Sequence record: JN600960.1
Source: Enterobacteria phage IME10
Direction: 5' to 3' (one strand)
DNA length: 39,646 nt
Part shown: piece after piece, positions 39,247 to 39,513 of the stretch
Layout: each line of letters starts with the position of its first letter
Numbering within the stretch: position 1 is the first letter of the stretch
Position numbers and translations under genes: made by a program
Notes under the pieces: model-generated
What the model saw: the letters and a program-made list of their open reading frames with translations, nothing else
Databases searched by the model: none
What the model was told of the DNA's origin: nothing

Positions 39247-39513
39247 ATGACACACATGATCTTTCGTCATGGCGACATGAAGAAGTGGAAAGGCGTTGGA
39301 TACGACTTTGAAATCGTGAAAGCCGAAGAGCTTCAGGAATATCTGGATGCTGGCTGGTTTGCACATCCCGATGACCTTCTGAAGGATGTTGCAGAGCCAG
39401 AGCCAGAGCCAGAGCCAGAGCCAGAGCCAGAGCCAGAGCCAGAAGAAAAACAGCGTAAAAAGCCTGGTCGAAAACCTAAGGCGGCAGCAGATGAACCTGA
39501 CAACGAAGGGTGA
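39247..39513 (+). CDS. Small protein with (Glu-Pro)8 linker and basic C-terminus, unknown function
   Basis: ATG with GGAG RBS after the coat terminator; contains the hexanucleotide repeat; overlaps the gp4 start. Confidence 0.5.
39394..39441 (+). repeat. Perfect hexanucleotide tandem repeat (GAGCCA)8
   Basis: Eight uninterrupted GAGCCA units read directly; in-frame, encoding [16 protein letters not shown]. Confidence 0.95.

Follow-up and report, generated by a model that had tools for sequence, protein, structure and literature searches.

The small gene between the major coat gene and gp4 of Enterobacteria phage IME10 (sequence record JN600960.1, 39,646 nt, the whole of which is referred to here as the window) carries a perfect array of eight GAGCCA hexanucleotides, which encodes a spacer of eight Glu-Pro pairs, (EP)8. 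Comparison with phage and prophage relatives marks this array as a hypermutable in-frame coding microsatellite, with perfect head-to-tail units, faster change than its flanks and a reading frame that is kept. The explanation we favour, with a probability of roughly 60%, is that the microsatellite lies in a selected gene of the head cluster whose protein is a tether with a spacer only weakly constrained in length. The gene and its parts are as follows.

39247-39513, + strand: small gene, 88 amino acids plus stop, member of PHROG 1175
39247-39393, + strand: N-terminal module (N-module), residues 1-49, predicted to be folded by AlphaFold2 with a 25-sequence alignment
39394-39441, + strand: perfect (GAGCCA)8 microsatellite, encoding (EP)8 as residues 50-65 of the small protein, by direct reading
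39448-39480, + strand: basic patch, residues 68-78 (11 residues), containing KKPGRKPK and predicted to be disordered

Tandem Repeats Finder (TRF) returned this array as the top-scoring one of the window (39392-39443, period 6, 8.7 copies, 100% matches, score 104). Across the whole window, a three-unit GAGCCA probe allowing up to two mismatches found matches inside 39394-39441 only, and it gave 0 matches in 100 dinucleotide-preserving shuffles; none of such three-unit matches is expected by chance. An earlier, first-pass annotation of this DNA had reported an uninterrupted (GAGCCA)8 at 39394-39441 and an in-frame repeat encoding (EP)8. Direct reading and TRF bear out the former, and translation of the open reading frame (ORF) 39247-39513, of which the array is in frame 0, bears out the latter.

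Unit number varies among close relatives of the window. Five phage isolates with flanks 95-99% identical to it possess 8, 6, 5, 5 and 2 units, against 8 in the window, and were read as follows.

APC_JM3.2: 8 units
Dewey: 5 units plus one GAGCAA
HZ41: 5 units
Louie: 5 units, two of them GAGTCA
CurroJimenez_Bas106: 2 units

The locus is also carried by 217 of 5,426 RefSeq complete E. coli genomes, and an evenly spaced sample of the ranking of these prophages spanned 1-33 units, counts being inferred from match lengths apart from the perfect (GAGCCA)33 of strain 98195 and the (EP)20 of strain CUVET19-970, both read in the sequence. The best 120 protein-cluster representatives are 75-98 amino acids long, mostly in two-residue steps, and their EP tracts are often broken by DP, ES, EQ, ET or EL, while 80 loci from IMG/VR have 4-15 units. 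A large proportion of the 86 loci analysed (n = 64) have arrays of pure GAGCCA, which accounts for 618 of 687 units, the commonest variant being GAACCA (35 units), which likewise encodes Glu-Pro. The frame is kept at all 86 loci and the observed differences are multiples of 6 nt.

Among 23 locus pairs whose 800-nt flanks are identical, 18 differed in unit number, as did 10 of 13 pairs with two or fewer mismatches in 2,800 nt of flanks (no flank mismatch at all in eight of these 2,800-nt-flank pairs). As pairs with near-identical flanks differ in unit number, copy number changes much faster than point substitution. Furthermore, the homogeneity of the units indicates that the array grows by duplication at the DNA level and not by amino-acid selection. 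This pattern is the expected signature of slipped-strand mispairing, the likely mechanism judging from the established instability of tandem repeats. The first-pass annotation had proposed that slippage would vary linker length without frameshifting, and had suggested comparing copy number across related phages and prophages. The proposal agrees with what that comparison found, as copy number is not invariant: relatives span 1-33 units in 6-nt steps and loci with identical flanks differ. An on/off phase-variable contingency locus was ruled out, since the hexamer lies inside a coding region and all changes are multiples of 6.

The substitution pattern marks the small ORF as a real gene, with its N-module under purifying selection in its own frame. 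Variable sites in the 147-nt N-terminal part split into 16 synonymous and 11 non-synonymous in the annotated frame, compared with synonymous:non-synonymous ratios of 3:24 and 4:23 when the same sites are read in the other two frames, and third codon positions make up 17 of the 26 variable positions. The same frame test on the 72-nt tail had only 7 variable sites, at 2:5 in every frame. Residues 1-86 of the protein match phrog_1175, a family without assigned function, at E 8.8e-37 over profile positions 1-72 of 72, and 386 database homologues were found. The exact 88-residue allele is absent among ~15 billion proteins in which hundreds of near-identical alleles are present, illustrating the many variants in length and interruption.

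Residues 1-49, used as a phmmer query against 1.84 billion representatives, gave 24 hits in all. These include small relatives of 71-79 amino acids and 43-74% identity, which retain the N-module, an acidic, proline-rich linker (the EP repeat itself is not in all of them) and the basic patch. The three-part architecture and the order coat gene, small gene, gp4 are kept in Yersinia, Klebsiella, Citrobacter and Hafnia relatives. Both the Yersinia relative and the distant relative P0133 (38% identity over the full protein by alignment, 43% to the 49-residue query by phmmer) are encoded between a P22-type coat gene and a P22_Tail-4 gene, overlapping the start of the latter, hence gene order is as conserved as the protein. 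The small gene is absent from P22, from Sf6 and from all but five of 50,697 phage records, which suggests an accessory rather than a core assembly gene. Its sole Pfam match was PF05887 (Trypan_PARP), at 21.1 bits against a cut-off of 100 and to the low-complexity EP stretch only. Defence and anti-defence models (PADLOC) matched neither the small protein nor its longer variant with a WDGH domain, described below.

The protein reads as 49 residues, then (EP)8, then 23 residues. AlphaFold2 predicted a beta-hairpin (strands 2-8 and 19-25) followed by helices at 26-34 and 41-48, with block values of the predicted local distance difference test (pLDDT) of 85/67/90/89/70 when the 25-sequence alignment was used. 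The single-sequence model was poor (pLDDT 61), and the alignment improved the N-module only. In the alignment, G9, W14, G16, Y19, D20, G36, W37, H40, P41 and D42 of the N-module are invariant. As modelled, the N-module of ~48 residues is folded and the EP spacer and remainder are disordered, matching the first-pass description of a globular-looking N-terminal part (roughly residues 1-48 in the model), then (EP)8, then a Lys/Arg-rich tail. The basic character of the patch is kept across genera as KKPG[RP]KPK, with variants KKPGPKPK, KKTRKPK and, in P0133, KRRGRPPK. The last ten residues of the window protein are acidic; some relatives stop right after the basic patch, so this acidic end looks like read-through into the gp4 overlap. 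A polyproline-II helix rises ~3.1 Å per residue, and by analogy with such helices the spacer may be an extended rod, of ~5 nm for (EP)8 and ~20 nm for (EP)33.

The surroundings of the small gene in the window comprise the following features.

36996-37907: scaffold gene (PF09306, 7e-179)
37907-39202, + strand: P22-type major coat gene, directly upstream of the small gene (PF11651, 5.8e-164)
39208-39232, + strand: intrinsic terminator after the coat gene, with stem 39211-39216/39221-39226, UUCG loop and U6 at 39227-39232
39237-39240, + strand: Shine-Dalgarno sequence GGAG, 6 nt 5' of the small-gene ATG and conserved in a six-sequence alignment
39491-39646, + strand: 5' part of gp4 (head-tail adaptor, P22_Tail-4), the rest of which lies at 1-345 of the window

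The terminator scan detected the hairpin GGGAGC-UUCG-GCUCCC (39211-39226) followed by U6, whose RNA fold (-18 kcal/mol, z -4.19) was equalled in stability by 0 of 200 shuffles. No variation was seen in the core stem and loop among the window and five relatives; in the T-run a single site varies, in HZ41. The gp4 ATG at 39491 is in the +1 frame and gives a 23-nt overlap (39491-39513) with the small gene; its own Shine-Dalgarno sequence is a weak AAGG, 9 nt upstream. Joined across the ends of the window, gp4 has 166 amino acids and matches PF11650 (P22_Tail-4) at 1.3e-58 from profile position 3. As the gp4 frame resumes at 1-345, the window is a circularly permuted complete genome, cut inside gp4. 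Placement of the small gene between coat and gp4, downstream of an intrinsic terminator and overlapping the gp4 start, as first described, is upheld by the PF11651 and PF11650 matches, by the terminator scan and RNA fold, and by the 23-nt overlap, respectively. A signal scan of the locus found no promoter-like site near the array, and 38900-39646 had no Rfam match at E up to 1.

The genome as a whole is a mosaic. From position 340 on, its tail and early genes share ~96% identity with those of Shigella phage Sf6, while scaffold, coat, small gene and gp4 make up a head module of P22 type, for which the matching phages are APC_JM3.2, Bas106, Dewey and Louie. An opposite-strand HNH endonuclease gene lies directly upstream of the coat gene in Dewey (L002 1-240) and Louie (L004 1-246), where the window has the scaffold gene instead; it looks like a free-standing homing-endonuclease insertion into the head cluster.

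The other phmmer hits of the N-module were proteins that Pfam identifies as GIY-YIG, HNH or NUMOD3 endonuclease-like (P0129, P0132, P0134, P0136-P0140 and P0142-P0144). These hold 3-6 tandem units of ~35 amino acids, '..WIN.dG..K.Ik.eELQ.YLDdGW.kG', downstream of the nuclease domain. Multi-stretch phmmer hits to this repeat had E values of 5e-7 to 8e-4, and hhalign of the N-module (residues 20-39) against it gave 95.8% probability (E 6.6e-9) over only 20 of ~34 columns. The likeness lies in the strand-helix segment of residues 20-39, with the motif 'ELQxYLDxGW', whereas the window module has an extra loop, is present in a single copy and is joined to no nuclease domain. No Pfam model and no solved relative of the repeat unit were found; DNA binding by it would follow solely from its presence in those enzymes.

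In some E. coli prophages, such as that of OkiPb01675 (L008 1544-2149), the slot between coat and gp4 holds, in place of the small gene, a 201-residue protein with a related N-module, a match to Pfam WDGH (PF25311, 1.4e-39, function unassigned) and membership of phrog_3769. Its 32-residue end, comprising EP linker and basic tail, is identical to that of the short form, hence short and long forms differ by one inserted or deleted domain and the shared end modules behave as a frame within which a domain can be gained or lost. Sequence searches for relatives of solved structure returned none for the N-module profile, the endonuclease-repeat profile or the WDGH protein, and weak structure matches to ETS and to a c-Myc-tag-like entry were judged spurious.

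EP-coding hexamer arrays are rare per genome, yet they form a recurring class. When 2.9 million IMG/VR contigs were scanned for exact (GAGCCA)6, at least 120 of them matched, and control scans found (GAACCA)6 in at least 120 and (GAACCG)6 in 50. The first-pass view that such an array is unusual in a phage genome is thus right for any one genome but not across IMG/VR, where these arrays recur. Three contigs carrying the window's gene family (L264, L271 and L301, identical with L039, L019 and L029) were also matched in the (GAACCA)6 scan; if their GAACCA arrays sit inside the EP tract, both synonymous units would be expanding in one tract.

Approximately 50 of the 120 (GAGCCA)6 matches listed are small proteins with a short basic tail, and only about half of these listed small proteins belong to the window's family. 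The others fall in PHROGs 5463, 2616, 18204, 21989 and 1020, and two of four tested types also match Pfam DUF7210 or DUF7302. They have an N-domain of 40-60 residues, a GAGCCA-encoded (EP)n with n = 9-79, and tails such as AKGKNKKG or KKGSKK. Their genes are flanked by an HK97-type capsid gene (PF05065, 1.6e-56) on one side and a gp6-like connector gene (PF05135) on the other, abutting or nearly abutting the latter where both neighbours are on the contig. Arrays of 31 units (L103 1990-2347) and 79 units (L170 825-1299, 474 bp) were observed, and contigs L102, L106, L120, L177 and L211 share the layout. Homology between the window N-module and the DUF7210/DUF7302 domains was rejected, with an hhalign probability of 0.06% (E 0.77) and no Pfam match. 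We regard the recurrence of the three-part layout in the capsid-connector slot of unrelated families as the strongest hint that the layout is functional.

In the scheme we favour, replication slippage, possibly also unequal recombination, would add or remove whole GAGCCA units, leaving the frame intact while the acidic Glu-Pro spacer changes length. The protein would be a tether, built from a hairpin/helix module of ~48 residues, an (EP)n spacer that is extended and disordered, and a short patch of basic character (Lys, Arg, Pro and Gly), with selection acting on the frame, on acidic and proline character and on both end modules. The small gene has a late-operon position past the coat terminator; it would be transcribed as part of that operon and be coupled in translation to gp4. 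As an adaptor in head completion or DNA packaging, the protein may bind a protein or DNA partner through its N-module, and DNA or an acidic surface through its basic patch; by position, its closest functional analogue would be lambda gpFI. Since 1-33 units are tolerated, exact spacer length appears weakly constrained and most copy-number change is probably near-neutral. Support for a tether comes from the non-homologous proteins of the same layout and from the WDGH variant, which keeps both end modules, and also from the polyproline-II rods of TonB and the bridging of capsid and terminase-DNA complex by gpFI, both taken up below.

A different possibility is that length variation is itself selected, the number of EP units tuning the reach or net charge of the protein, which could help the phage to evade a defence sensor of its host or to adjust a capsid fibre or decoration exposed on the surface. 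Such an adaptive contingency locus would explain mutability that is very high relative to the flanks, arrays mostly kept pure (64 of 86) instead of decaying, the one negative charge added per unit and the emergence of the same layout in unrelated families with arrays of up to 79 units. We nevertheless consider it unlikely, as a unit length that is a multiple of 3 allows no on/off switching, the copy-number distribution is broad and unimodal with no preferred classes, many alleles contain interrupting ES, EQ, ET, DP or EL units, which damp slippage, and no defence or anti-defence model was matched.

We are equally doubtful that the small ORF is a passenger or leader, i.e. a decayed remnant, either of a longer WDGH-domain gene or of the DNA-binding region of a homing endonuclease, kept to deliver ribosomes to the gp4 start and with the repeat as tolerated junk. 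The purifying selection on the N-module in its own frame (16:11 against 3:24 and 4:23) argues against this, as does the retention of N-module, acidic linker and basic patch down to ~40% identity in several genera, and a pure leader would need none of the three-part layout that is found again in unrelated families. A passenger would, however, fit the 23-nt overlap with a gp4 whose own Shine-Dalgarno sequence is weak (AAGG, 9 nt upstream), the absence of the gene from P22 and Sf6, the apparent irrelevance of spacer length (1-33 units) and the motif shared between N-module and endonuclease repeat; the short form could also be a deletion derivative of the 201-residue WDGH variant, with which it shares both ends.

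It is very improbable that the repeat matters in another frame or strand, either within a gp4 extended through Ser-Gln (SQ) repeats from an ATG at 39386 or within reverse-strand ORFs. The gp4 frame is indeed open from 39383 to the gp4 ATG, two GenBank records (Dewey and Louie) annotate a gp4 of 195-197 residues starting there, and reverse ORFs at 38998-39603 (201 residues, Leu-Trp (LW) repeats) and 39333-39554 (73 residues, Gly-Ser (GS) repeats) are on the ORF list. However, gp4 from 39491 (166 residues) already matches P22_Tail-4 from profile position 3, and the annotations of APC_JM3.2, Bas106 and RefSeq prophages all use this start. GAAGG abuts the ATG at 39386, leaving no spacing for a ribosome-binding site. 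The variant unit GAACCA, silent when read as EP, replaces Ser by Asn when read as SQ, and we calculate a probability of ~0.4 that the 20 codons outside the repeat stay open by chance. As for the reverse ORFs, they lie across conserved genes of the forward strand, and the forward frame alone is supported by the substitution patterns. A programmed frameshift into the gp4 frame was ruled out separately, there being no slippery heptamer and the frame being open by chance (p ~0.4).

Least probable of all, the length differences could be short-read assembly artefacts at a locus that is really stable, for drafts and metagenome assemblies are numerous among the sequences compared and the 198-bp (EP)33 array exceeds typical short reads, but most arrays (24-90 bp) are below read length, the differences are exact multiples of 6 with intact flanks and are seen in independently sequenced isolates and in RefSeq assemblies rated complete, and internal variant units lie at different positions between alleles, requiring real sequence differences.

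Returning to the tether, a wider version of it, which we offer as speculation with the odds well against it, is that the window protein belongs to a widespread, undescribed class whose members combine a small N-domain that folds, a polyproline-II rod of (EP)n prone to slippage and a short basic tip, acting as tethers of the capsid-adaptor slot with the microsatellite as an evolvable ruler. Such a class would be found in phages of both the P22-like and the HK97-like type, with N-domains of two or more groups between which homology is not detectable. If this were true, the tethers, like gpFI, would link DNA or terminase to the capsid or portal vertex, or else they would project from the capsid. 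The locus also points to a conserved and little-studied gene slot between capsid and adaptor, which repeatedly holds small proteins with N-domain, EP rod and basic tip.

Public annotation of the locus is inconsistent, with the small gene missing or mis-framed in some phage records. In Dewey (L002 1787-2380) and Louie (L004 1787-2374), a 'head-tail adaptor Ad3' is annotated that extends through (SQ)n and the small gene is omitted; this SQ-extended gp4 is probably an artefact of gene calling. In the public record of APC_JM3.2, the gp4 homologue (L001 1892-2392) wrongly bears the name 'recombinase RmuC', and copies of the small EP protein (P0037, P0046 and P0051) are misnamed 'dihydrolipoamide acetyltransferase', presumably because of the proline-rich linker.

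The locus provides a clean natural case of a phage coding microsatellite whose evolution outpaces that of its surroundings by orders of magnitude. In E. coli, where 217 of 5,426 complete genomes carry it, P22-like prophage lineages could be tracked with it at fine scale, and carrier phages have already been isolated (Bas106, Dewey, Louie and APC_JM3.2).

Two further repeat-bearing regions were observed elsewhere in the window. At 23238-23332, within ORF 22852-23742, a perfect 11-bp direct repeat, TTGTCCAACGG, forms two clusters (2.9 and 2.6 copies) ahead of an AT-rich stretch. A DnaB-like helicase gene (23717-25168, PF03796, 3e-60) follows shortly downstream, and the region resembles a lambdoid origin whose iterons sit in the initiator gene. 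On the - strand, 19312-20280 encodes a 322-residue protein rich in Glu, Ala, Lys and Arg, coiled-coil-looking and with no Pfam match, and the gene shows a degenerate 6-nt periodicity (TRF 19685-19768, 63% matches).

In-frame coding microsatellites and EP spacers are already known kinds of element, while this locus is undescribed in the searchable literature, which returned no publication on the small gene or locus or on recurring EP-rod proteins of the capsid-adaptor slot. Among known systems, the basic patch is AT-hook-like, but it reads G-R-K-P in the window (KKPGRKPK) and PGPKPK in many relatives and has no Gly-Arg-Pro core; the canonical RGRP core is confined to P0133, a distant relative (KRRGRPPK), and to an unrelated EP protein of L196 (KKRGRPKK). 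Trypanosome EP procyclin (PF05887) shares a long, pure and acidic (EP)n repeat, with organism, location and flanking domains all unrelated.

The first-pass annotation had likened the linker to the Glu-Pro spacers of TonB-type proteins, and in composition the likeness stands, for in both an acidic run of Glu-Pro precedes a basic stretch rich in Lys and Pro. Homology was rejected: the TonB model NF008082 gave 15.7 bits against a cut-off of 265, over residues 47-80 only, and the window protein had no other TonB-related Pfam match. A relative of the L138 type scored 22.9 bits on Pfam TonB_N, where the cut-off is 33. Scores this far below the cut-offs point to compositional likeness and not to kinship. 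The window protein also differs from TonB in having no membrane anchor and no TonB C-terminal domain, and its basic part is 11 residues with no KP repeat. The EP and KP stretches of TonB are described as polyproline-II rods (PMC10771500).

Lambda gpFI resembles the window protein as a small accessory protein encoded between the major capsid and head-tail adaptor genes. The lambda gene order is E-FI-FII, with FI between the capsid gene E and the adaptor gene FII, and gpFI, too, is dispensable in related phages or with suppressor mutations. It forms a bridge between capsid and terminase-DNA complex (PMC13595911). The two proteins differ in domain order and chemistry, and as no sequence or fold similarity was detected between them, the likeness is positional only.

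The DUF7210/DUF7302 proteins share with the window protein the layout of an N-domain, a GAGCCA-encoded (EP)n, a basic tail, a place in the capsid-connector slot and hypervariability, but their N-domains are not detectably homologous to that of the window protein and their host phages are HK97-like, not P22-like. In-frame coding variable number tandem repeats, which alter the length of protein linkers, likewise consist of perfect short units with a length that is a multiple of 3, change much faster than point substitution and keep the frame; the array of the window differs from them in lying in the head-gene cluster of a temperate phage and in a small protein without assigned function.

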